Numbered from the stretch's first letter, positions 1 through 17,453 are shown. The stretch: DNA of 20,800 bases from an uncultured Candidatus Saccharibacteria bacterium (GCA_964517275.1 CAZFBL010000003.1:29698-50497); one strand, 5' to 3'. Notes: generated by a model not told the origin, from the sequence alone. Numbers and translations: made by a program.

Positions 1-115
1 CAAGACGGGCCTGCCTCGTCGCAAGACGGGCCTGCCTCGTCGCAAGACGGGCCTGCCTCGTCAAACCAAGACGGGACTGCCTCGTCAAACCAAGACGGGA
101 CTGTTAATCTGATTA
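1..115 (+). repeat. In-frame tandem repeat: 21-bp unit x3 (caagacgggcctgcctcgtcg) then 24-bp unit x2 (caaaccaagacgggactgcctcgt)
   Basis: Direct reading of the sequence. In frame 1 it translates as QDGPASS x3 and NQDGTASS x2, a low-complexity linker in the VanW-domain protein. Confidence 0.85.
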
Positions 116-1581
116 ACTTCGGCTTCCAATTCAATGAACAGGCCACTCTGGAAGCCATCTATCGAATCGGCCGTCAAGCCGGCTTTTTGGCTAATATCAA
201 AGAACAGCTAATTGCCTTAGCCGGCGGCTATCGACTGACCCCGGTTTATCAACTAGACCAAGAAAAATTCCGAATCAAAACAGCCAAGCTCTTTAAAGAT
301 ATTGAAAGGCCGGCTCAAAACGCCAGCCTGGTTTTTAATCAAGAAACGGATAGTTTTTCTCTTGAACACTCGACCGAAGGAACGGCCATCAAGCGCAACC
401 AATTGCTGGCTGATTTAACAAGCAGAATTGAATCACTTTCCAGCCAGCCGATTGAATTACAATTGGCCCTTGACTACCCGACAGTTAAAAATAACGAAGT
501 TGAAGAAGCCCGTCAGAAAGCCGAATCAATTTTAGCCAACCAACCCTACCAATTGACCTTCGGAGAAAGCTACTGGACAATTGACAAGGAAACTATCATT
601 GACTGGTTAAAGTTTGAACCGGTTTCGGCCGAAGACAAAGAAGAAAATCCCAACAATCAGATTCTGGGCTGTTCTCTAAATGAGGAAAAAATTAAAACTC
701 ATTTAGCCGAGATAGCCAAGACGATTGACCGGCCGACAACCAATGCCCGTTTGGAAACCGAAGGCAAGCGAGCAATTGTTTTTTCAGCCGGCCAGGCCGG
801 TTTCCGGGTTTATCAACAGGAAACTATCCAAGAATTAACCAATAATATCTTGGGCCAGCCGCCAATTAAACAGACTAAGCTTATTGCCGATGTCGCTCCG
901 CCCAGAATAAGTTTGAGCCAAACCAATAACTTGGGTATCAATATTTTAATCGGCCAGGGCAACTCTAATTTCGGCGGTTCGCCCAACAATCGAATTCACA
1001 ACATCAAAACAGGGACAGCTAAATTTAATGGCTTAATCCTGAATCCGGGCGAGGAATTTTCTTTCAACGAGCTTTTAGGCGGCAGCGGGCCGGCCGAGGG
1101 CTTCCTGCCGGAACTGGTTATCAAAAAAGGCAAAACCGTCCCTGAGTACGGCGGCGGCCTCTGTCAGGTCTCGACCACCCTTTTCCGAGCGGCCGTTAAC
1201 AGCGGCCTGGAAATCACCGAGCGCCGCCCCCACGCTTTTCCGGTTGTCTATTACTCTCCTCAAGGCTTCGACGCGACCGTCTACAACCCTTCTCCCGACC
1301 TCCGTTTTATCAACAACAGGCCGGGCCATCTTCTAATCGAGGGAGTCGTTCAGGGCAGTCAATTAATCTTCAACTTTTATGGAACTGACGACGGCCGCCA
1401 GGTTCAAATTAAAGGGCCCTACATTTTAGAAAAAAAAGAAGACGGTTCAATGAAAGCCGTCTTATACCAAGAGGTTTACCAAAAAGATGAATTAGTTCAT
1501 CAGCAGACTTTTTACTCAAATTATGATTCGCCCGATTTGTATCCGATCGGCGGGAGCGAAGAAGACGAAGAAGAAGATTAA
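1..1581 (+). CDS. VanW-domain protein, 5'-partial; the reading frame is open from base 1
   Basis: Frame 1 has no stop from nt 1 through the listed ORF (187..1581), so the gene enters from upstream. The C-terminal half carries a VanW-like signature: YGGGLCQVSTTLFRAA ... ERRPHAFPVVYYSPQGFDATV. Stop TAA at 1579-1581 is followed by an intrinsic terminator. Confidence 0.7.
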   Translation, partial: QDGPASSQDGPASSQDGPASSNQDGTASSNQDGTVNLINFGFQFNEQATLEAIYRIGRQAGFLANIKEQLIALAGGYRLTPVYQLDQEKFRIKTAKLFKDIERPAQNASLVFNQETDSFSLEHSTEGTAIKRNQLLADLTSRIESLSSQPIELQLALDYPTVKNNEVEEARQKAESILANQPYQLTFGESYWTIDKETIIDWLKFEPVSAEDKEENPNNQILGCSLNEEKIKTHLAEIAKTIDRPTTNARLETEGKRAIVFSAGQAGFRVYQQETIQELTNNILGQPPIKQTKLIADVAPPRISLSQTNNLGINILIGQGNSNFGGSPNNRIHNIKTGTAKFNGLILNPGEEFSFNELLGGSGPAEGFLPELVIKKGKTVPEYGGGLCQVSTTLFRAAVNSGLEITERRPHAFPVVYYSPQGFDATVYNPSPDLRFINNRPGHLLIEGVVQGSQLIFNFYGTDDGRQVQIKGPYILEKKEDGSMKAVLYQEVYQKDELVHQQTFYSNYDSPDLYPIGGSEEDEEED

Positions 1582-1585
1582 GAAA

Positions 1586-1609
1586 AGTCCGCCCACAGCG
1601 GACTTTTTT
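1586..1609 (+). terminator. Rho-independent terminator
   Basis: 7-bp stem agtccgc/gcggact with loop ccaca, followed by a T6 run, 5 nt after the stop codon. Confidence 0.8.
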
Positions 1610-1622
1610 AGTCGAAGTTTAG

Positions 1623-1706
1623 TGCGGACGGTGGGAGTTGAACCCACATGAGATTGCTCTCACCAGGTCCTAAACCTGGCGCGTCTGCCAATTCCGCCAC
1701 GTCCGC
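1623..1706 (-). tRNA. tRNA-Leu (anticodon TAG), 84 nt, long variable arm
   Basis: Reverse complement folds as GCGGACG-TG-GCGG...ACGC-G-CCAGG-TTTAGGA-CCTGG-(15-nt variable arm)-GTGGG-TTCAACT-CCCAC-CGTCCGC-A. The anticodon loop is TTTAGGA, giving anticodon TAG. CCA is not encoded. Confidence 0.88.
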
Positions 1707-1749
1707 TTTTAGTCTATTTTAATCCCCTTTCAGTCAAAAATCAATACTC

Positions 1750-1778
1750 TTGACATTTAAGATTTTGTTGTGTATAAT
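1750..1778 (+). promoter_or_regulatory. Consensus sigma70-type promoter (TTGACA, 17-bp spacer, TATAAT)
   Basis: TTGACA at 1750-1755 and TATAAT at 1773-1778 with an exact 17-bp spacer and TG immediately upstream of the -10. Strong SD AAAGGAGGA at 1846-1854 sits 6 nt before the ATG at 1861. Confidence 0.75.
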
Positions 1779-1860
1779 AGTGAGTATTAATTTAGGTAAG
1801 GGAGGGACTTAAATTATTTAGGTTCCTTTAAAAATCAAACTCTGAAAAGGAGGATAATCA

Positions 1861-2940
1861 ATGAAATCATTTTTATTGGGAGTTTATATCGGTTTAGGTA
1901 TAGTTGGCTTAGCCGCAGCTGTTTTTGGCCTAATTATCTTAATTCACTTCCTGGCCAAAAATAATATTTTCATCACTTCTGTCCAGGAAGGAATGGCTAA
2001 AGCAATCCAGAAATTCGGTAGATTCCATCGGGCAGTAATGACCTATGAAGGATACGGGTTCGACACCGAATGGACAGTCCGCCCTAAAGAAAAAACAGAT
2101 GAAGACGGCTATATCCTCGGTGAAAACGGAAAGATTGCTAAGAGCGAACAAGAAACATCTCTTAAACTTCGGTTAGAACCATGGTTTCGATTTGGCGGTC
2201 TCCGCTGGGTAGGCATTCCTCTAATTCATTCTGTCTATAGGTATAAATTCAGATGGGCTTCGTTTGAACAAGGAGAGGAGCAAGGCACCCTTGTTCAGAA
2301 AATTATCTCTCACGAGGAAAAAATAGATTATGTTCTGGTTCAAGACGACATCTATTACAGTTTTGTTACGGAAGCAGAAACCGAAGGGATGGTTCCAGTA
2401 AATGTGAATTTACTCTTGACCATTAGGATAGTTAATCCTTATAAAGCTCTTTTCAGAGTTCAGAACTGGCTGGAAGCAACTCAAAACTTGCTTAAACCTG
2501 CTCTGAGAAAGTACATCTCTGGAAAATCATTTGAAGATTTAATCAGGAAAAAAGAAGAAACAGAAAGAGAAGCAGATGAGTTTCTAAAAGAATCTGAGGT
2601 AGATAAATACCTGGAACGAGATTATGGTGTTCGTCTGAAGAAAGTTGGTATGGTGCTGATTAACCCAGCTGGCGAACGAGGTCAAACTTTTGTCGCGGCG
2701 GCAACTAAAGAATGGGAAGCCGAAAAGGAGAAAAGCCGAATCAAGATAAGTGCCGAAGCCGAAGTAGAAAGAATAAGAAGGATTTACGATCAAATCAAGA
2801 GTTATGGCGAAGAAGGACTTTTCATCCGAGCCACCGAGGCCATTGAGGAAACTGGCAAGGGGCCAAGCAATTTGGTTCTTTTTCCTCTCGGCTCGGCTAA
2901 ATCTATGATTGAAGGATGGCTGGGAAGAAAAAATCAGTAA
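1861..2940 (+). CDS. SPFH/band-7 (stomatin/prohibitin-like) membrane protein with an insertion
   Basis: N-terminal TM helix. VPVNVNLLLTIRIVNPYKALFRVQNWLEATQNLLKPALRKYISGKSFEDLI matches the SPFH core (compare stomatin VPVRVNAVVYFRVVDPVKAV...). C-terminal charged coiled coil (EKEKSRIKISAEAEVERIRRI). Strong RBS. About 100 extra residues are inserted after the first SPFH strand. Confidence 0.7.
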   Translation: MKSFLLGVYIGLGIVGLAAAVFGLIILIHFLAKNNIFITSVQEGMAKAIQKFGRFHRAVMTYEGYGFDTEWTVRPKEKTDEDGYILGENGKIAKSEQETSLKLRLEPWFRFGGLRWVGIPLIHSVYRYKFRWASFEQGEEQGTLVQKIISHEEKIDYVLVQDDIYYSFVTEAETEGMVPVNVNLLLTIRIVNPYKALFRVQNWLEATQNLLKPALRKYISGKSFEDLIRKKEETEREADEFLKESEVDKYLERDYGVRLKKVGMVLINPAGERGQTFVAAATKEWEAEKEKSRIKISAEAEVERIRRIYDQIKSYGEEGLFIRATEAIEETGKGPSNLVLFPLGSAKSMIEGWLGRKNQ

Positions 2941-2968
2941 AGAGCAAGAAAAAAAGGAAGGCAAGGAA

Positions 2969-4240
2969 ATGAGCATAAAAGGCAAGAAAAAAGCAGGACA
3001 AGGAATGAGCGTAATAATATATATCGTTCTCGGTATAATAGTGGCAATAGCCATGGCCAGCCTTGTTTCAATGAGCATGTTATATGCCATTTTCGGTATA
3101 ATAGTGGTAATGTTAGTAGCTGCTCTGGTTTCTCTGATAGCCGCCTGGCTGATAACTCGGACGTCAAAAGAAACAACAAATGAGATAAGCAGAGCAGAAA
3201 GAACCAGAAACATAAAGGATTTCTGGTGGAATTACTTCAAGCCCCTGGCGGCTGTGCCAATTGGCTGGTACATACTCCATATTGTTGTCTGGCTTATGTT
3301 TCCAGAAACCGCCAAAGCCATTTGGGGATACCATCTTCAAACTTTACTGGCCGTCGAAATAATTGTCTTTGTTCTTAATTCTCTCCTCAATAAACAAGTT
3401 GCTTTCCGAGACAGGAATACCAGAAAATTGATGGAGGGGGTTTACATAACATTTCTAGTCATGGGTTTATTGATAATACTGACAGGCGTCTTCGCTGGCG
3501 AATGCAAAGCAACCATTGATATGTATTTCTACTCGCGGATAAAACTCTCGGAAGTTGCTAAAATGGAGGTAAAGATAGAAATTGGCCAGACCGAATGGAA
3601 AAGCAAACCGTCATTCAAAGAGCTAAATCAATTGAGCAAAGAGATTAGCAAACGACCCTTCAGCGACACGGAAATGGAAAATGTCAGAGGTCAAGCTGAA
3701 GAGGCAAGAGACATAATTTCCACTATGCTGGAATCACATCTGGCAAACCTCCAACCGAGCAGTGACGGACAAAATGGTCAGCCAGCTGGTCCTTTTAAGA
3801 CATCGGCCAGTATCATTCAAAATCCGGACGGCTCTTGGGATATGCCGGTCTTGGCCAATAGATTGGAAATTGATTCCACCCTGGAGGTCAAAGAGGGACA
3901 AGTCGTAATAATTACGGCTAGTGGCCAAGTCAACGGTTGCAAAAGTCAATACGATGCTGCTTATGGCTGGACCGGACCAGAAGGAAGAAAATGGGACTTC
4001 GACCCAAAAAGAAAACGCCCTCTGGGACCGGGCTCTCCATTTATGGCTCTCGGGGCTAAAATCGGCGAGAATGGAAAATGGTTCAAGGTGGGAAAAAAGA
4101 TAAACTTTCGGGCAACCGAGGGAGGAAAGCTCTATTTCACAGTCAACGACGACATCCATGACAGTCAGGGTAGATTCCGACCAGGATGGATAAAGGACAA
4201 CGAGGGACAATATACGGTTAAAATCAAAATTGATTGTTGA
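2969..4240 (+). CDS. Polytopic membrane protein (about 5 TM) with a C-terminal PA-IL/LecA-like lectin domain
   Basis: SD AGGAAGG lies 7 nt before the ATG at 2969. In-frame alternatives are 2909 and 3005. The positively charged N-terminus is followed by 5 hydrophobic helices. The last ~115 aa (GQVVIITASGQVNGC...WTGPEGRKW...MALGAKIGENGKWFKV...LYFTVNDD...DNEGQYTVKI) align with P. aeruginosa LecA (GDVITIVAAGWASYG...WGPQGD...ALVMKIGNSG...ITLIYNDV...NNSGSFSVNI). LecA was recalled from memory and not searched. Confidence 0.6.
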   Translation: MSIKGKKKAGQGMSVIIYIVLGIIVAIAMASLVSMSMLYAIFGIIVVMLVAALVSLIAAWLITRTSKETTNEISRAERTRNIKDFWWNYFKPLAAVPIGWYILHIVVWLMFPETAKAIWGYHLQTLLAVEIIVFVLNSLLNKQVAFRDRNTRKLMEGVYITFLVMGLLIILTGVFAGECKATIDMYFYSRIKLSEVAKMEVKIEIGQTEWKSKPSFKELNQLSKEISKRPFSDTEMENVRGQAEEARDIISTMLESHLANLQPSSDGQNGQPAGPFKTSASIIQNPDGSWDMPVLANRLEIDSTLEVKEGQVVIITASGQVNGCKSQYDAAYGWTGPEGRKWDFDPKRKRPLGPGSPFMALGAKIGENGKWFKVGKKINFRATEGGKLYFTVNDDIHDSQGRFRPGWIKDNEGQYTVKIKIDC

Positions 4241-4258
4241 AAGGAGGGAAATGAACAA

Positions 4259-4296
4259 AGAGGCAGCGAAAATTCGCTTCACTGCCTCTTTTTTGT
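4259..4296 (+). terminator. Rho-independent terminator
   Basis: GC-rich hairpin gaggcag...ctgcctc with an inner gcgaa/ttcgc pairing, followed by a T6 run, 19 nt after the stop. Confidence 0.8.
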
Positions 4297-4322
4297 TAAA
4301 ATAAAAACATAATCATAAAGAT

Positions 4323-6644
4323 ATGTATCGAAACAAAGTCATCTCCGTGGTTATCCCCTGCTATAACGAGGCGAAATCAATTGACCAAGTAATTAAATCT
4401 CTGCCTAAAGAGATAGACGAAATCATTGTTGTAGATAACAATTCAACCGACCAGACAAATAGAGTTGCCCGAACGGCCGGAGCCAAAGTTATTTTTGAAC
4501 CGAAACAAGGATATGGCCATGCTTATAAAGCAGGTTTAGGTAAAGTCAAGGGCGAAATTATCGTCACCTTAGACGGCGATATTCAATATCCCACCGAAGA
4601 AATTACCGACCTAATTAAGTTTTTGATAGATAAAAAGATAGATTTTCTCTCTGCTTCTCGTTTCCCTCTTAACAATCTAAAATCTATTAACAGGACTCGA
4701 CTAATTGGTAATAAAATCCTCACTTGGTTAACTAATTTCTTGTTTAAGACAAAAATTAAAGATTCCCAATCAGGTATGTGGGTTTTCAAGAAAGTAGTTT
4801 TAGACAAACTTTCTCTTGTCAGCAATGGTATGCCCTTTTCTGAGGAAATAAAGATTAGGGCTTTTTTGGAACCGAAACTATGTTTCGCTGAAAAAAAAAT
4901 AAACTACCGTCCAAGAATAGGAGAATCTAAACTATTTCCCCTAAAAGACGGTTTTAAAAACCTCACTTTTTTGTTCAAACTGCGTTGGCAGTCTAGAAAG
5001 AGGAAAAAGGGATTTCTTCTGTCAGCTTCATTTATATTTCTCATCTTCGCCGCTATCTTTTCCTTTATCCAATTTTCATCTCCTAATCTGGCCGGCGTTG
5101 ATGCTTATTATCATATTAAATACGCTTATCTTTATCGGACTTTAGGTATTCAAGAAACACTCAATAACTTCAGCCTAGCCGGAGAATACTCCATTTTGAA
5201 CCAATATCCAAGCGACCTTTCTTTTCTCTATCACGTTATTTTAATCCTCTTTACTTACGGCAATCTAATTACTGGCAGTAAAATAGTCGCTGTTCTTTTG
5301 GCCGCTTTAATTTTTACGGTTTTTTACTGGGTCTTTAAAAAACTCGAGATAAAATACAGCTTTGTCTGGACTGGCCTATTCTTTGTCGCCTCCAGTGCTT
5401 TTATCTTCCGGCTGACCCTCTCACGTCCTCTTCTTTTGTCTATCCTTTTTTCTATTTTGGGCTTCTATTTAATTGCCAAGAAAAAATATGGCTGGCTTTT
5501 TGTTTTGTCTATCCTTTACGCCTTAAGTTATGCTATTTCTCTCCTTATTTTAGTCATGAGTTCTATTTATTTACTGGCCGAGTACATTCAAACTAAAAAA
5601 TTTGACTGGAAACTTCTTTTTTATCCATTTACAGGCATCTTAATCGGTTTGATTATCCGGCCTGATTTTCCCCAAAATTTTTATCTTGTTTTTGCCCAAA
5701 GTTTTTATACCATTTTCTATAAACTTGAAGGAATTCAGTTAGGTATCGGCGCTGAAATGTCCTTAATCAGCACTCCTTTGAGAACTAATTTCATTCTGCT
5801 TTTTCTTTTTAGTTCTACTTTAGCTTTTGTTTTAGCGGACTTAATTAATAAAGGGTTCAAAAAGAATAATTACTCAACCGTTCATCTTTACGCTCTCTTT
5901 TTGGCTATTTTCTTTTGTCTTTTGACTTTTGTTAGTCAAAGATTTTTTGAATACTGGACTCCTTTTACTTTGTTTTTTGCCGCTTTTAGTTTTGAATATA
6001 TCTCTCAAGACGGATACTGGCGAGATTTATTCAGCCAATTCTTCAAATTAATAGGTTTTTCTTTAAATCGATTAAAACTTCTCTTTTTAGTTTGTCTCTG
6101 CTTAATCATCATCTCCTATGGTTATATTAATGCCTCAAAGGCGGTTGAATCGATGGAGGAAACCATTCTTACCTCTGACCGTTATCAAGAAGTCAGTCAG
6201 TGGCTGGAAGACAACACGCCAGCTCAATCAATCGTCTTTAACGCTTCTTGGGATAATTTCCCCCAATTATTTTTCCATAATCATCACAATTACTATATTA
6301 TCGGTAAAGACCCTACCTTTATGTATCTCTATGATAAAGAACTTTTTTGGCTCTGGATGAATGTGACCCGTCAGGGTATTATTTGCGCCCAGCCTGAAAA
6401 AAACTGCTCTGACTCGGTCTTCACCGAAAAATTATCCCAACGGGCTCAAGAAATACATCGGATTATCGAAAACAGATTCCAAAGCGAATATATTTTTATA
6501 GACAGTCAATTAGAATTTGACCAATCTCAAAGACATCAAGTATTTAAAAAAATATTAGAGAACTCTTCTCTGTTTAAAAAAGTTTACCAAGACAAAGAAT
6601 ATCCGGAAGTGATGATTTTCCAATTAGCGGATAGTACTATTTGA
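4323..6644 (+). CDS. Family-2 glycosyltransferase (polyprenyl-phosphate sugar synthase-like) fused to a large polytopic membrane domain
   Basis: The N-terminus has GT2 signatures (VVIPCYNE, VDNNSTDQT, DGDIQYP), like DPM1/GtrB/ArnC-type enzymes. About 10 predicted TM helices follow (aa ~240-600), then a ~170-aa soluble C-terminal region. No SD is visible; a cataat hexamer sits only ~10 nt upstream of the ATG. Confidence 0.7.
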   Translation: MYRNKVISVVIPCYNEAKSIDQVIKSLPKEIDEIIVVDNNSTDQTNRVARTAGAKVIFEPKQGYGHAYKAGLGKVKGEIIVTLDGDIQYPTEEITDLIKFLIDKKIDFLSASRFPLNNLKSINRTRLIGNKILTWLTNFLFKTKIKDSQSGMWVFKKVVLDKLSLVSNGMPFSEEIKIRAFLEPKLCFAEKKINYRPRIGESKLFPLKDGFKNLTFLFKLRWQSRKRKKGFLLSASFIFLIFAAIFSFIQFSSPNLAGVDAYYHIKYAYLYRTLGIQETLNNFSLAGEYSILNQYPSDLSFLYHVILILFTYGNLITGSKIVAVLLAALIFTVFYWVFKKLEIKYSFVWTGLFFVASSAFIFRLTLSRPLLLSILFSILGFYLIAKKKYGWLFVLSILYALSYAISLLILVMSSIYLLAEYIQTKKFDWKLLFYPFTGILIGLIIRPDFPQNFYLVFAQSFYTIFYKLEGIQLGIGAEMSLISTPLRTNFILLFLFSSTLAFVLADLINKGFKKNNYSTVHLYALFLAIFFCLLTFVSQRFFEYWTPFTLFFAAFSFEYISQDGYWRDLFSQFFKLIGFSLNRLKLLFLVCLCLIIISYGYINASKAVESMEETILTSDRYQEVSQWLEDNTPAQSIVFNASWDNFPQLFFHNHHNYYIIGKDPTFMYLYDKELFWLWMNVTRQGIICAQPEKNCSDSVFTEKLSQRAQEIHRIIENRFQSEYIFIDSQLEFDQSQRHQVFKKILENSSLFKKVYQDKEYPEVMIFQLADSTI

Positions 6645-6691
6645 ATATAAGGACTCGTCCTGTTTAAACTATAAATTCAAACCGCAAACTA

Positions 6692-6727
6692 AAAACCAGG
6701 CAAATCAAAACGCTTGTCTGGTTTTTA
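6692..6727. terminator. Bidirectional intrinsic terminator between convergent genes
   Basis: Stem aaaaccag/ctggtttt with an 18-nt loop, flanked by A-run and T-run, in the gap between the + gene ending at 6644 and the - gene ending at 6790. Confidence 0.55.
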
Positions 6728-6789
6728 GTACATATATGCAATAAAACTATCCAATTCCTTTAACTCAGCTTTTCGGCTAACTAAATCTA

Positions 6790-7140
6790 CTAGAGCAGGC
6801 CGATGACAACATTGACTATAGCCAGAGCAGCTAAAGCAATTAACAAACCAACTATACCGCTAATCAACAACTTTCTGGCTTTAGCTTGTTGGTCTTCATT
6901 ACCACCGGCCGTTGCCCACATAATTCCGGCAATAACGATAACCAAGGCAGCAACTAAGGCGGCAATGCCGGCTATCCAGTTAACCACGCTTTCTATAATT
7001 TCCCGAACACTCTTATTAGAGACATTACTCATATTGGTCGGACCTGTGATAGCCGCTGAGACAAAATTAGAACCAACCAAAAAGACAAAAGCGGTTAGTA
7101 AAAACAAACTAACCAATGATTTCTTCTTAATAATTTTCAC
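6790..7140 (-). CDS. Small secreted two-helix membrane protein, TrbC/VirB2-pilin-like (paralog 1 of 3)
   Basis: GTG start with SD-like GGAAAGGGGGTG 8 nt upstream. Signal peptide ends at FVSA|AI. The mature part has two hydrophobic helices around a GGNED turn (WIAGIAALVAALVIVIAG...GGNEDQQAKARKLL...). This layout is typical of T4SS TrbC/VirB2 pilins. Confidence 0.5.
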   Translation of the reverse strand: MKIIKKKSLVSLFLLTAFVFLVGSNFVSAAITGPTNMSNVSNKSVREIIESVVNWIAGIAALVAALVIVIAGIMWATAGGNEDQQAKARKLLISGIVGLLIALAALAIVNVVIGLL

Positions 7141-7174
7141 TAGATTTCACCCCCTTTCCTTAAGATAAATTAAT

Positions 7175-7537
7175 TTATGGTGTAATACCCAAAATATCGA
7201 ATAAGGCCTGTAATAATCCCCAAGAGGCTAGAATAATAGCCAGACCGATTAAAGACCATTGTATAGTCTGACGAGCCTTCTTAACTTTTTCTTCGCTCCC
7301 TCCGGAAACCATATATTGAATACCACCAATAACAACCATTAAAACAGCTACCGTTGAAGCAATGCCAGCCACCCAATCAGCGATCCGGAGGAAAAGCTCA
7401 GTAAAAGTATTGGCATTAAGAGGATTATTTATCACCATATTGGCAGCTTTAATACTAATCAGAGGCAAAATGATCACTAAAAAGCTAAAAGTCAAAACTG
7501 ATAATAAAGAAAACTTTTTGAGGATGTTTCTAAACAT
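7175..7537 (-). CDS. Small secreted two-helix membrane protein, TrbC/VirB2-pilin-like (paralog 2 of 3)
   Basis: Signal peptide (...SIKA|AN), then WVAGIASTVAVLMVVIGG...GGSEEKVKKARQTIQW..., clearly homologous to the neighbouring two genes. Starts 9 nt after the paralog-3 stop. No SD is visible. Confidence 0.5.
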   Translation of the reverse strand: MFRNILKKFSLLSVLTFSFLVIILPLISIKAANMVINNPLNANTFTELFLRIADWVAGIASTVAVLMVVIGGIQYMVSGGSEEKVKKARQTIQWSLIGLAIILASWGLLQALFDILGITP

Positions 7538-7546
7538 AAATTTTTA

Positions 7547-7957
7547 TTACGGACAAGGAGGAAATACGTTCCAAGCGCCGCTGAAAGCTCCGGTGGCAAT
7601 AGATTTTAATAAACTGTCGATTATTAACCAACTGGTAAAAATGATGACTAGGCCGATAACCGCATTGGTAAAAATATTTTTGGCCAAACTGACTCTTTCC
7701 TCGCTGCCGCCGGCCACAAGAAAGATAACCCCGGCCGCCACAAATAGGAGAACAGCCGCCGGAATAGCCAGATTAAAACTGATAAAATTGATAATATTAC
7801 TGGCCAAGTGCCAAAGATGACAAAGACTACAGTCCGGCTGACCTGTCCGGCCACAAGGGACTATCGGTTCGGTAACAAAACCGGCATAGGCCAAATTAGC
7901 GGCCAGTAAGCCAATTAAGATAAAAGAACCGATTAGAATTTTCTGAAAACTATCCAT
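7547..7957 (-). CDS. Small secreted two-helix membrane protein, TrbC/VirB2-pilin-like, with a Cys-rich insert (paralog 3 of 3)
   Basis: Signal peptide, then the Cys-containing segment PCGRTGQPDCSLCHLWHL, then the shared core AAGVIFLVAGGSEERVSLAKNIF...GLVIIFTSW, ending ...FPPCP. Confidence 0.5.
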   Translation of the reverse strand: MDSFQKILIGSFILIGLLAANLAYAGFVTEPIVPCGRTGQPDCSLCHLWHLASNIINFISFNLAIPAAVLLFVAAGVIFLVAGGSEERVSLAKNIFTNAVIGLVIIFTSWLIIDSLLKSIATGAFSGAWNVFPPCP

Positions 7958-7964
7958 CTAATAA

Positions 7965-9260
7965 TTATTCCTTCATCAAGAGAGTTATTTGATTAGCCGC
8001 CCGTTCAATCGCTTCCTCGATAGTCGCCCGGCTTAATACCACTGATTCTATCATATCGGCCAAATATTGCTCAATAGCCGAGTTATCCACCTGTTCCCAG
8101 GAATAGGCGGTTAAGGCCTGTTCGGCAAAAACCCCCAAGTCCGGGTCGTCTCTCTGCCAGTTAACCAAGTCGCGACGGGCGGTTGGTTTATTAGTCGATT
8201 CCAAATACTGTTGACTATTCTCTTTCTCGACCAGCCAGTCAATGAATTGCCAGGCTCGCTCGGCCTCCTGGCAGTTGCGAGAAACGACCAGTCCCCAATA
8301 GTTGGCATAATTGACTTCTTTAGTCGCTGTTTTGATCTGAGGCATCGGAGCAACGGCAAAATTTAAATAAGGCGATTTAGCCCGAATAGTCGGCAATTGA
8401 TAAGCATAATTAAAGAGCATTGCCACCTGACCTTCGGCAAAAGCGTCGACCGAGTAATCCATTCTTGTGTTCCAGGTATAAACTGCTTTAAGAGGGTTGG
8501 CGAAATCGGTATAGAATTCTAAGGCTCGTTGGCCGGGATAGAAATTTTGACCATTGAGCTCAACCGACTTGTCGAAAGTGGCGGCCGTCCTTTCCTGATT
8601 AACCATTTGAGCGCCCGATTGAAGCATTAAAAGAGATAAAATATCTGTCGACCGGTTAATATTGCGGGCTGTTCCCAGAGCCGCTCCGGCCCGGATAACA
8701 TTGCCCCGTTCATCCTTGATAGTTAAAGATTCTAAATCGGCCATAAATTCTTCCCAGCTGGCCGGCGGTTGGGGAATGCCGAGACTGTTGAAAATATCCT
8801 TATTGTAGTAAAGAGCCAGCGTGTCAACGCTTAAGGGCAAAGCGGCAATAGTCCCGTCGGCGGCAAAATCTTCGCAGACAACATCGACAAAATTTTCTTT
8901 CAATTCTTTGAGGGTGATTAAACCCGCAGGAGCCGCCCAAATTTTATCCTGGTAACGAGACAGCCAGCTGTTATGGAGCATAAAAATATCCGGGCCGCGT
9001 CCGCTGGCCATTGCTTCCAACAAATCTTCTTCATAGTTTTGATAGGTTTTTCTGTAATAGTTAATTTTGGTCTTCGGAAAATCCTGATTAAATTTATCAA
9101 TCAACGGTTTAAAAACGTCGGAGCCGTCAAAAACACCCCAAAATTCCAACTCAACTTCTTCAAGAACCGGCTCCTTACAGCCGGGTAAAACAGCCGCTAA
9201 GCCGATGAAAACAACCGGTAGAATGATTGTATAGAGAGTAGCCGTTTTGACTTTGGGCAT
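7965..9260 (-). CDS. Extracellular solute-binding protein (ABC-type, family 1), probable lipoprotein
   Basis: Signal peptide with lipobox-like AAVLPGC. Overall length and composition are typical of sugar or oligosaccharide SBPs (MalE-like). No permease or ATPase genes are adjacent. Confidence 0.6.
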   Translation of the reverse strand: MPKVKTATLYTIILPVVFIGLAAVLPGCKEPVLEEVELEFWGVFDGSDVFKPLIDKFNQDFPKTKINYYRKTYQNYEEDLLEAMASGRGPDIFMLHNSWLSRYQDKIWAAPAGLITLKELKENFVDVVCEDFAADGTIAALPLSVDTLALYYNKDIFNSLGIPQPPASWEEFMADLESLTIKDERGNVIRAGAALGTARNINRSTDILSLLMLQSGAQMVNQERTAATFDKSVELNGQNFYPGQRALEFYTDFANPLKAVYTWNTRMDYSVDAFAEGQVAMLFNYAYQLPTIRAKSPYLNFAVAPMPQIKTATKEVNYANYWGLVVSRNCQEAERAWQFIDWLVEKENSQQYLESTNKPTARRDLVNWQRDDPDLGVFAEQALTAYSWEQVDNSAIEQYLADMIESVVLSRATIEEAIERAANQITLLMKE

Positions 9261-14241: not shown

Positions 14242-16065
14242 ATGAAATATCTTCTTAAAAACCTAATCATCGTCTTTCTGGTTTTCCTGACTATTGCCGG
14301 CTTCTTTGCTCTGGTTAGTCAGCCCGGCCAGAAGCCGGAAGAAATTACCCTGAATCAGCTAGTCGAACAGATTAACCAGGAAAAAGTGGCTAAAATTATT
14401 ATCAAAGGGAACCAATTAGAAATTGAATTAAAAGACGGCAATCAAGAGAAAGCGAATAAAGAGGAGGAAGCTTCACTAACCGAATCTCTGAAAAACTACG
14501 GCCTTGCTCCCGAAAAGCTAAAATCAGTTAATCTAGAAGTAAAAAGCGAAAGCGGTCTGGTGTTCTGGCTAGGAACAATTCTCCCTTTTCTCTTACCTTT
14601 ACTGATTATTGGCTTCTTCTTTTGGTTTATCTACCGAGGCGCCCAGCGCGGCCAAATGCAGGCTTTTACCTTTGGTCGCTCGCGGGCCCGTTTATTCAGC
14701 CCTAAAGACAAAAAAGAACAAGTCACTTTCAAAGACGTAGCTGGCTTGAAAGAAGCCAAGGAAGAATTGCAAGAAATCGTTGATTTTTTAAAAAATCCCA
14801 AGAAATTTGTTAATTTGGGAGCGAAAATCCCTAAAGGAGTCCTCTTGGTCGGCCAACCGGGCACCGGTAAAACCCTCTTGGCCCGAGCAATCGCTTCTGA
14901 GGCCAGTGTTCCCTTTTTTAGCGTCTCCGGTTCTGAGTTCGTTGAGATGTTTGTCGGAGTCGGTAGCTCACGCGTCCGCGACTTGTTCCAAACAGCCAAG
15001 AAACAGGCCCCGGCTTTAGTCTTTATTGACGAATTAGATGCCATCGGCCGGCAACGGGGAGCCGGCCTCGGCGGCGGCCACGACGAAAGAGAACAAACCT
15101 TAAATCAGATTCTAGTCGAGATGGACGGCTTTGACCCTAATGCCGGAATCATTCTTCTGGCGGCGACTAACCGGCCGGACGTTTTAGACCCGGCCCTTCT
15201 GCGACCGGGCCGCTTTGACCGCCGAATTGTCTTATATTTACCTGACCTGAAGGACCGAAAAGAAATCCTGAAAATCCACGCTCGAAACAAGCCCTTAGAT
15301 AATAAGGTTAACTTGAAAGAAATCTCTGAACGAACGCCTGGTTTTTCGGGAGCTGATTTGGCTAATTTAGTTAATGAAGCGGCTATCTTAACCGCCCGAC
15401 GAAATAAGAAGAAAATTAGCCAAGATGAACTGCGGGAATGTATTGAAAAAGTTCTTTTGGGACCAGAGAGAAAAAGCCGTCTTCTTTCCAAAAAAGAGAA
15501 AGAAATTGCCGCTTATCACGAAGCCGGCCATGCCTTAGTCGCCTCTTCCTTAAATCATACCGACCCGGTTCAAAAAGTTTCCATTATCGCTCGCGGCCCG
15601 GCGGCCGGCTACACCCTTAAACTACCAACTAAAGAAAGGCAACTCCACAGCCGTTCCGAATTTGTCGATGAACTAGCTGTTTTGATGGGCGGCTATGTAG
15701 CCGAGGAACTAGTTTTCAATGAACTAACCACTGGCGCCTCCAGCGACTTACAAAAAGCAAGCGAATTAGCCCGGGATTTGGTCACTAAATACGGAATGAG
15801 CGAAAAAATGGGACCGCGCACCTTTGGCGGTCGGGAAGAAATGGTTTTCTTAGGCCGGGAAATTGCCACTGAAAAAGAATATTCGGAAGAAATAGCCGCT
15901 CAGATTGACAAAGAGGTAGGCAAATTTATCGACAATGCTTACCGAACAGCTAAAAAAATATTAAGCGAGGAAAGAAAACGTTTGGATTTGATTGCCAAGC
16001 GCCTAATCAAAAAGGAAACGATTGAGCGAAAAGAATTCCAAAGCTTAATGAAAAAGAAAATTTAA
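14242..16065 (+). CDS. ftsH: ATP-dependent zinc metalloprotease FtsH
   Basis: Two N-terminal TM helices, Walker [15 protein letters not shown] region, zinc-binding HEAGHAL. Confidence 0.95.
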
Positions 16066-17209: not shown

Positions 17210-17256
17210 AAAAAGATTGACCGAATGGCAAAGATTGACTAAAATAGAATTGTTTT

Positions 17257-17329
17257 GGGCGTGTAGCTCAGGGGTTAGAGCATTGCTCTTATAAAGCAAG
17301 GGTCGATGGTTCGAATCCATCCACGCCCA
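17257..17329 (+). tRNA. tRNA-Ile, anticodon TAT (UAU)
   Basis: Perfect cloverleaf: GGGCGTG/CACGCCC acceptor, GCTC/GAGC D-stem, TTGCT/AGCAA anticodon stem, loop CTTATAA, GATGG-TTCGAAT-CCATC T-arm. The body resembles bacterial tRNA-Ile. The 3' end is followed by CCC, not CCA. Confidence 0.85.
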
Positions 17330-17333
17330 CCCC

Positions 17334-17407
17334 GGGCGGTTGGCGCAGTTGGTTAGCGCGCGTCGTTGACATCGACGAGGTCAGAGGTTCGAATCCTCTA
17401 CCGCCCA
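17334..17407 (+). tRNA. tRNA-Val, anticodon GAC
   Basis: GGGCGGT/ACCGCCC acceptor, GCGC/GCGC D-stem, CGTCG/CGACG anticodon stem, loop TTGACAT, AGAGG-TTCGAAT-CCTCT T-arm. It starts 4 nt after tRNA-Ile. Confidence 0.88.
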
Positions 17408-17453
17408 CCCCGAGTAAATCTACCTCAAAAGACAAATCTGTCCCCCATCTTCT

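Follow-up and report, generated by a model that had tools for sequence, protein, structure and literature searches.

The window, i.e., the whole stretch of DNA analyzed here, comprises 20,800 nucleotides (nt) from an uncultured Candidatus Saccharibacteria bacterium (GCA_964517275.1 CAZFBL010000003.1:29698-50497). This text concerns the operon at its positions 1750-4296, in which the gene of an SPFH (band-7) protein (gene 1) is followed by the gene of a polytopic membrane protein (gene 2) with a C-terminal domain resembling the lectin LecA. The site that the operon occupies, between a tRNA-Leu gene and a conserved right flank, is referred to below as the slot. The operon and its left neighbor comprise the following features, all in window positions.

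1622-1706, minus strand: tRNA-Leu(UAG) (tag anticodon; ARAGORN), the conserved left neighbor of the slot, its 5' end facing the operon.
1750-1778, plus strand: sigma-70-type promoter TTGACA-17-TATAAT (TTGACA at 1750-1755, TATAAT at 1773-1778), a 12/12 match.
1801-1829, plus strand: possible structure of the 5' leader, a 13-bp hairpin ahead of UUUAAAAA with weak fold statistics.
1849-1853, plus strand: Shine-Dalgarno sequence GGAGG, 7 nt ahead of the gene 1 ATG at 1861 (direct reading).
1861-2940, plus strand: gene 1, SPFH/stomatin-like protein of 359 amino acids (Band_7 profile, structural model and Foldseek).
2969-4240, plus strand: gene 2, polytopic membrane protein of 423 amino acids with a C-terminal LecA-like domain, identical to the database protein P0001.
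3005-3496, plus strand: membrane anchor of gene 2 (residues 13-176), about five transmembrane (TM) helices, predicted N-in/C-out (hydropathy and positive-inside counts).
3497-3823, plus strand: charged linker or stalk of gene 2 (residues 177-285), predicted extracytoplasmic (sequence composition and alignment).
3824-4237, plus strand: LecA/PA-IL-like beta-sandwich domain of gene 2 (residues 286-423).
4257-4297, plus strand: intrinsic terminator, a hairpin (4257-4291) plus T-run (TTTTTT), with a folding energy of -19.3 kcal/mol (z=-3.3).

This organization agrees with an earlier interpretation made from the DNA alone (hereafter, the sequence-only reading), which had pointed out the perfect promoter, the strong Shine-Dalgarno sequence, the tight spacing of the two genes, the strong terminator and the adjacent tRNA-Leu(TAG). 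Indeed, the ATG of gene 2 at 2969 lies exactly 28 nt past the TAA of gene 1 (2938-2940); the mechanical open reading frame (ORF) of gene 2 begins at a TTG within gene 1, and GGAAGG/AAGGAA is located ahead of the ATG at 2969. In window 1-6000, promoter-like sites are not more numerous than in shuffled sequence, and a promoter scan found its sole 12/12 match at 1750-1778 on the plus strand. The leader hairpin at 1801-1829 (centroid fold of -12.7 kcal/mol) has a z-score of only -1.3, statistically indistinguishable from shuffles, and an Rfam scan of 1500-4400 matched the tRNA region alone.

Gene 1 encodes a genuine SPFH protein, as had been proposed. It scores 41.4 bits against the Pfam Band_7 profile PF01145 (gathering score 23.6; E=2e-10) and is matched by the P. 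horikoshii (PH) stomatin 3bk6 (E=5.9e-9). Its AlphaFold2 (AF2) model, built with 20 homologs (mean pLDDT 77.6), presents a TM helix at the N-terminus (residues 2-33), an enlarged, beta-rich SPFH region (38-190) and long coiled-coil helices (271-314 and 317-333). Human stomatin, HflK/C, prohibitin and QmcA are the top Foldseek matches of this model (E from 5.6e-10 to 2.4e-8), and the Foldseek probability reaches 1.00 for stomatin, HflK/C, prohibitin, QmcA, erlin and flotillin, which are full-length cage-forming SPFH proteins. The sequence-only reading had noticed an insertion of ~100 amino acids in this protein. Its size was about right, as gene 1 exceeds the minimal SPFH core by ~85-100 residues, but these form two pieces of the N-terminal beta region rather than a single insert: residues ~62-111 are highly variable in length within the subfamily and residues ~133-160 are conserved. 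This subfamily has at least 142 full-length members, and its named representatives are few (Ca. Wolfebacteria, Portnoybacteria, Liptonbacteria, Pacebacteria, "Patescibacteria group" and one "bacterium"); a single-protein query against genome contigs retrieved one locus, from a Ca. Wolfebacteria metagenome-assembled genome. Across 20 sequences of the family, lysine and arginine (K/R) number 8 before the TM helix and 51 after it, which suggests an N-out/C-in orientation with the SPFH domain in the cytoplasm. By analogy with the solved SPFH cages (2024 work as cited in PMC13086221 and PMC12624060), the product of gene 1 is likely to assemble into an oligomeric cage at the cytoplasmic side of the membrane. 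Membership of a known defense system was rejected, since the PADLOC defense models gave no relevant match for gene 1, gene 2 or the other types of SPFH protein described below.

The LecA/PA-IL-like nature of the C-terminal beta-domain of gene 2, also anticipated by the sequence-only reading, is supported by structural and profile comparisons. The domain comprises ~140 residues and is shared at high identity (53-69%) by ~15 database clusters. Its model has the beta-sandwich fold of LecA: in Foldseek, only LecA or EclA chains were matched at E<=1e-3, and the other listed matches were mostly beta-sandwich or jelly-roll domains, with no NfeD or OB-fold chain among the matches listed. At the profile level, hhalign aligned the lectin family with LecA (sequence verified against 3zyb) over 110 columns with 32% identity (E=5.1e-5, probability 67%). 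Neither PA-IL nor NfeD, nor any other meaningful family, was matched when gene 2 as a whole or its C-terminal domain alone was scanned with Pfam and NCBIfam; the link with PA-IL runs instead through related proteins. An exhaustive profile search retrieved 593 cluster representatives at E<=1e-3; among the 89 of these that were scanned, 32 carry the Pfam PA-IL domain (PF07828; best E 1.3e-15), and LecA matches the intermediate P0144 at 2.5e-13 (small database). A search of the Protein Data Bank (PDB) with the single C-terminal domain sequence retrieved nothing, and the profile retrieved PllA below threshold (E=0.59) together with spurious matches to beta-trefoil designs.

The motifs GxxIxIxAxG, KIG and ND...(D/N)NxG are common to the window domain, LecA (PA-IL) of Pseudomonas aeruginosa, PllA of Photorhabdus and the N-domain of Enterobacter EclA. 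In the alignment, the columns of LecA D100, N107 (D/N) and N108, whose side chains coordinate Ca2+ in LecA, are conserved together with G110 through the intermediates and into the window protein, which has D, D and N at the three former positions, invariant in the 10-sequence family. The domain is a putative carbohydrate-binding one, probably Ca2+-dependent. Compared with LecA, the window clade has 9-11 residues inserted between ND and DN and additional ones near the Y36 position, and both H50 and Q53 are replaced, with an invariant R at the H50 position of the family (hhalign). In addition, the window-type domain forms the C-terminal ectodomain of membrane proteins that are polytopic or single-pass, unlike LecA and PllA, which are soluble and small (~121 amino acids).

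Upstream of this domain, gene 2 contains five hydrophobic segments with K/R-rich loops (residues 1-12, 63-91 and 138-152) on alternating sides. Five TM helices are thus predicted, with the C-terminal 247 residues outside the cell, and the short lectin homologs that have a single N-terminal anchor are consistent with an extracytoplasmic domain. The N-terminal part of the lectin homologs ranges from one TM helix (173 amino acids) to about five (430 amino acids), and anchors homologous to that of gene 2 are found in P0002-P0005 and, with a different ectodomain, in a related locus discussed below (L022). A direct repeat of 31 nt (84%) at 3018-3048 and 3081-3111 encodes similar TM1 and TM2 segments and suggests that a short part of the anchor was duplicated internally.

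In the classical description of SPFH operons, NfeD is the sole conserved partner (PMC2636767). Gene 2 could accordingly be viewed as a divergent NfeD homolog with an OB-fold, in an ordinary SPFH-NfeD operon: it shares an operon with an SPFH gene and, with hydrophobic segments at its N-terminus and an all-beta domain after them, follows the general NfeD layout (PMC2636767). The sequence-only reading had noted this likeness, which stands for gene 2 itself, a multi-TM protein with a C-terminal beta-domain, and fails as a conserved trait, given the variable number of TM helices in its homologs. The short form of NfeD has 140-150 amino acids, with three hydrophobic stretches followed by a small soluble domain (PMC2636767); gene 2 has 423, with about five TM helices, a C-terminal region of 247 residues and no C-terminal five-stranded beta-barrel. 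Neither the Pfam nor the NCBIfam NfeD profiles match it at E<=1, its top structural matches are lectins of the LecA family, its ~140-residue domain is linked to proteins with Pfam PA-IL, and this domain is predicted to be outside the cell. Profile, structure, size and topology taken together effectively refute the assignment of gene 2 to NfeD or to OB-fold proteins. For the partners of other SPFH genes, NfeD profiles likewise gave no match, at cutoffs of E<=1 for the L020 partner and of E<=0.1 for four further downstream partners.

We compared the window with related loci, designated L001-L100 (which together with the window form the first 101 sources) and L101 and L104 (further sources); the sampling was seeded on the lectin and on the window's type of SPFH protein. 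The close lectin homologs are all located in one syntenic order: (PrsW, HSP20,) VanW, tRNA-Leu(UAG) on the minus strand, the promoter, the gene 1 slot and the lectin gene, followed by a membrane protein of 550 amino acids (fused to GT2 in some loci), 2-4 pilin-like genes, SBP, methyltransferase and GyrA. Flanking proteins share 59-75% identity between the window and the other lectin loci, and flank synteny across related loci corresponds to 56-93% protein identity. An SPFH gene lies directly upstream of the lectin gene in nine of the 12 distinct lectin loci (9/11 of the syntenic ones), with a gap that ranges in relatives from +18 nt to an overlap of 20 nt (-20), which supports that genes 1 and 2 behave as one operon. 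The conservation of the pairing suggested by the sequence-only reading is therefore real but not exclusive, as three lectin loci have no SPFH gene and, as shown below, the SPFH subfamily of the window is mostly found with other partners.

The SPFH proteins linked to the lectin belong to four types, namely A (window, L001), B (L004, L006), C (L007, L018) and D (L015, L017, L101), which are undetectable from one another by BLAST although all four score above the Pfam Band_7 threshold. Such replacement of one type by another ahead of the same lectin points to a generic need for an SPFH scaffold at this site. The promoter is found upstream of all four types. A motif TTGAC[AT]-16..18-TA[TA]AAT is present in 17 of the 18 same-slot loci checked, 40-200 nt (mostly ~100-125) upstream of the first slot gene, L012 being the locus that lacks it. 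When eight intergenic regions of otherwise poor conservation are aligned, TTGAC and TATAAT are invariant columns. This recurrence shows that the window promoter is a phylogenetic footprint and not a chance match. The leader motif CTGAAAAGGAGG is likewise conserved in relatives ahead of the four SPFH types and, together with the promoter, indicates that the variable segment starts approximately at the start codon. Hairpins occur at the equivalent leader position in L022, L024 and L026, with differing stem sequences; the fold z-scores of the leader hairpins are weak (from -1.1 to -2.7). As to the content of the slot in the two syntenic loci devoid of an SPFH gene, that of L012 (4620-5997) holds a protein of 224 amino acids with an Ig-like domain (Big_3_5, sub-threshold) and a membrane protein of 233 amino acids, and that of L011 (193-684) a protein of 163 amino acids without family match, still preceded by TTGACA-17-TATAAT.

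From these observations we favor, with a probability of roughly 0.55, a scaffold-client model in which this SPFH-partner operon, driven by a conserved consensus promoter and belonging to the core genome of a bacterium of the Patescibacteria (candidate phyla radiation, CPR), presents a lectin at the cell surface. The SPFH assembly made by gene 1 would corral or stabilize the membrane anchor of gene 2 as an enclosed client in a membrane microdomain. The lectin domains, which may individually be of low affinity, would be displayed outside on their stalk and would thereby form a clustered, multivalent glycan-binding patch. Such a patch could serve for attachment to a host cell or to a glycan of the bacterium's own envelope, possibly made by the adjacent GT2/GT-C-like enzyme.

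The window's SPFH subfamily pairs mostly with partners other than the lectin protein. The type A profile retrieved 80 metagenomic loci, and the lectin domain was present in one of them, a duplicate of L002. Among the closer type A relatives (49-78% identity), the next gene starts at -4 to +9 nt and encodes either a small membrane protein of 143-190 amino acids or a protein of 316-395 amino acids; these downstream partners cluster into few families, the small ones with predicted extracytoplasmic C-termini. The closest relative of the window by its flanks, L022 (VanW 86%, SBP 93%), has an SPFH protein of only 60% identity and a partner whose multi-TM anchor and stalk are 54-56% identical to those of the L001 lectin protein, but which ends in a different domain of ~90 residues that recurs on the short partners of type A SPFH proteins. 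These alternative ectodomains (L022 3618-4787; L023, L026-L030) open with an SG(T)FxxPA junction motif, as does the lectin domain. Aligned by hhalign, the lectin domain and the alternative ("type-II") C-terminal domain show no similarity (probability 6%), and for this reason we treat them as different domains despite their common junction. The mixture seen in L022 indicates that anchors and ectodomains have been recombined as modules, and the slot between the tRNA-Leu and the conserved flank is a hypervariable replacement hotspot.

A wider interpretation, which we advance tentatively, is that CPR bacteria of this lineage keep a promoter-anchored cassette site where at least four deeply divergent SPFH scaffolds and interchangeable ectodomains on common anchors would be shuffled by recombination. 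SPFH cages would then act as generic organizers of a variable adhesion patch on the cell surface, whose lectin version may read the glycan of the co-inherited GT2/GT-C enzyme or that of a host.

The proximity of the tRNA-Leu had led the sequence-only reading to evoke an island-integration context. A mobile genomic island inserted at this tRNA gene could be argued from that adjacency, from the different block content of the relatives and from the mobile-element genes that separate the tRNA from the SPFH promoter in two of them: an IS1595-type DDE transposase, Bro-N, HNH and an extra tRNA-Ser in L001 (1121-4830), and an rve integrase and a LAGLIDADG-like ORF in L004 (1441-3957). These genes show that the interval is recombinationally active; nevertheless, the operon is not an integrated island. 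The tRNA-Leu(UAG) occupies the same position in 14/14 related loci that include that flank, and the promoter and both flanks are also conserved and syntenic. Its 3' end points away from the operon, and window 1-7000 contains neither a repeat of the tRNA (1622-1706), the attachment site that was to be looked for, nor an integrase ORF. Moreover, the slot is occupied in every related locus, where the content alone varies, without any empty-site polymorphism. We consequently regard an island as very improbable.

The same variability could be read as the absence of any specific module, the interval from tRNA-Leu to SBP being a hypervariable region of envelope proteins under diversifying selection and recombination where the adjacency of SPFH and lectin genes is incidental. 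L022 fits this idea, since with the nearest flanks it combines an SPFH protein of only 60% identity, another ectodomain, no GT-C-like gene and divergent pilins, as do the identities of the pilin-like genes, which range from 29 to 76%, and the insertions of mobile-element genes into the interval of L001 and L004. An incidental adjacency seems rather unlikely to us, however, because the two ORFs are tightly coupled or overlapping in every locus, the SPFH gene is the first gene of the slot in most of the syntenic lectin loci despite its four unrelated-looking types, and type A SPFH genes are consistently followed, at the short distances given above, by a small membrane protein.

The right neighbor of the operon bears on a further explanation; it is listed here with the pilin-like genes and with a more distant gene relevant to known SPFH systems.

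4323-6644, plus strand: right neighbor, a GT2 domain fused to a GT-C-like membrane domain of 550 amino acids (Pfam Glycos_transf_2, 1.7e-25).
6790-7957, minus strand: three genes of T4SS_pilin/TrbC-like small membrane proteins.
14242-16065: FtsH gene, ~10 kb from the operon.

The lectin's functional partner could be the GT2/GT-C-like glycosyltransferase, whose glycan the lectin would bind or by which it would be modified, with the SPFH gene as a separate housekeeping gene of membrane quality under the common promoter. The profile of the 550-residue GT-C-like domain is found in 21/21 lectin loci and in 0/80 others among the first 101 sources, and also in L101 (not in L104). It is kept in L011 and L012, both without SPFH, and the type-II loci have neither the lectin nor the GT-C-like gene. 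The GT2 part of the enzyme resembles polyprenyl-phosphate hexose synthases (NCBIfam AglJ-like, 1e-35) and its membrane part weakly matches archaeal STT3; a PDB profile search with the GT-C-like family gave no match. Nevertheless, a strong terminator separates gene 2 from the glycosyltransferase gene in the window, whereas genes 1 and 2 are 28 nt apart and overlap in some relatives. One gain or loss within a single clade could also have produced the co-occurrence, which, with a sampling seeded on the lectin and type A SPFH, is suggestive only. Finally, this explanation leaves the repeated re-installation of SPFH genes before the lectin gene unaccounted for, and it is compatible with the scaffold-client model rather than exclusive of it. 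We view it as possible, though doubtful as a replacement for that model. The GT2 part is fused to the 550-residue domain in the window, L006 and L007, whereas the other lectin loci have no GT2 part; in L001 and L101, the membrane domain occupies 7301-8950 and 4554-6203, respectively. The pilin-like genes vary in copy number (2-4) as well as in sequence between related loci, far more than SBP, methyltransferase and GyrA.

Several observations weigh against the scaffold-client model, which must thus be interpreted cautiously. L011 and L012, both syntenic, keep the lectin and the GT-C-like gene without an SPFH gene, so that the GT-C-like gene accompanies 11/11 syntenic lectin genes versus 9/11 for SPFH, and the distant lectin homolog L104, in an unrelated context, has neither partner. 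All the pairings come from one syntenic slot in one lineage and are therefore not phylogenetically independent. Regarding the lectin itself, PF07828 does not match the window protein even at E<=10 for the domain alone, the alignment shows no conservation of H50 and Q53, the galactose contacts of LecA, and the model of the domain has a pLDDT of 64, with low confidence in the presumed Ca2+/sugar loops. The topology was predicted from hydropathy and charge counts alone and places the SPFH and lectin domains on opposite sides of the membrane, so that any contact would occur only through the TM region and the cytoplasmic loops. We infer this contact, as we do the sugar binding and the biological role.

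Known SPFH systems provide partial parallels to the scaffold-client model. The SPFH-NfeD operons (E. coli QmcA/YbbK-YbbJ, P. horikoshii PH1511-PH1510 and B. subtilis YuaG-YuaF) likewise combine, within one transcript, the gene of a membrane-anchored SPFH protein with that of a partner made of N-terminal TM segments and a C-terminal all-beta domain, and the gene 1 model matches, among other cages, QmcA of the QmcA-YbbJ cryo-EM structure 8z5g. In contrast to these operons, the window partner has no NfeD signature or OB-fold and carries a LecA-like domain of 140 residues on a stalk of ~110. In QmcA-YbbJ, SPFH-NfeD heterodimers build a cage that extends into the cytoplasm (PMC13086221), while the beta-domain of the window partner is predicted to be extracytoplasmic. 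Similarly, SPFH and NfeD trees co-vary (PMC2636767), whereas the SPFH type and the partner domain are here interchangeable between close relatives. The cages of HflK/C-FtsH and of stomatin with its clients present the same architecture as gene 1 (TM helix, SPFH domain, long coiled-coil helices) and the same concept of an enclosed client. Unlike HflK/C-FtsH, the operon has no protease partner. The orientation of HflK/C is also opposite to the cytoplasmic one predicted for gene 1.

In the library searched, no paper was found to link SPFH operons with lectins, and those of its papers that mention Patescibacteria together with SPFH describe no such operon. What is new here is an SPFH-partner operon with a membrane-anchored LecA-like lectin as the partner, in a variable, cassette-like slot. 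SPFH proteins are ubiquitous, their bacterial clients are poorly defined and NfeD is the sole widely recognized operon partner. The slot offers a natural experiment in this respect, in which one partner domain follows four highly dissimilar SPFH proteins and one SPFH protein precedes different partners, and the client requirements of an SPFH scaffold are thereby open to direct testing by co-expression. The LecA/PA-IL family is extended to membrane-anchored ectodomains in the CPR, and a candidate glycan-binding surface protein, with its adjacent glycosyltransferase, is nominated for the attachment of these ultra-small episymbionts. Should the cassette-site interpretation hold, prokaryotic SPFH proteins would have a role not described before, and the site would be a candidate determinant of host attachment in episymbiotic Patescibacteria.

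Two minor features lie outside the slot. Where the window begins (positions 1-90, upstream of the VanW gene), a 21-24-nt unit (CAAGACGGGCCTGCCTCGTC..) occurs four times in tandem, and every copy forms a small imperfect palindrome. At 17256-17409, a tRNA-Ile with the anticodon TAT adjoins tRNA-Val(gac); tRNA-Ile with the UAU anticodon is uncommon in bacteria.

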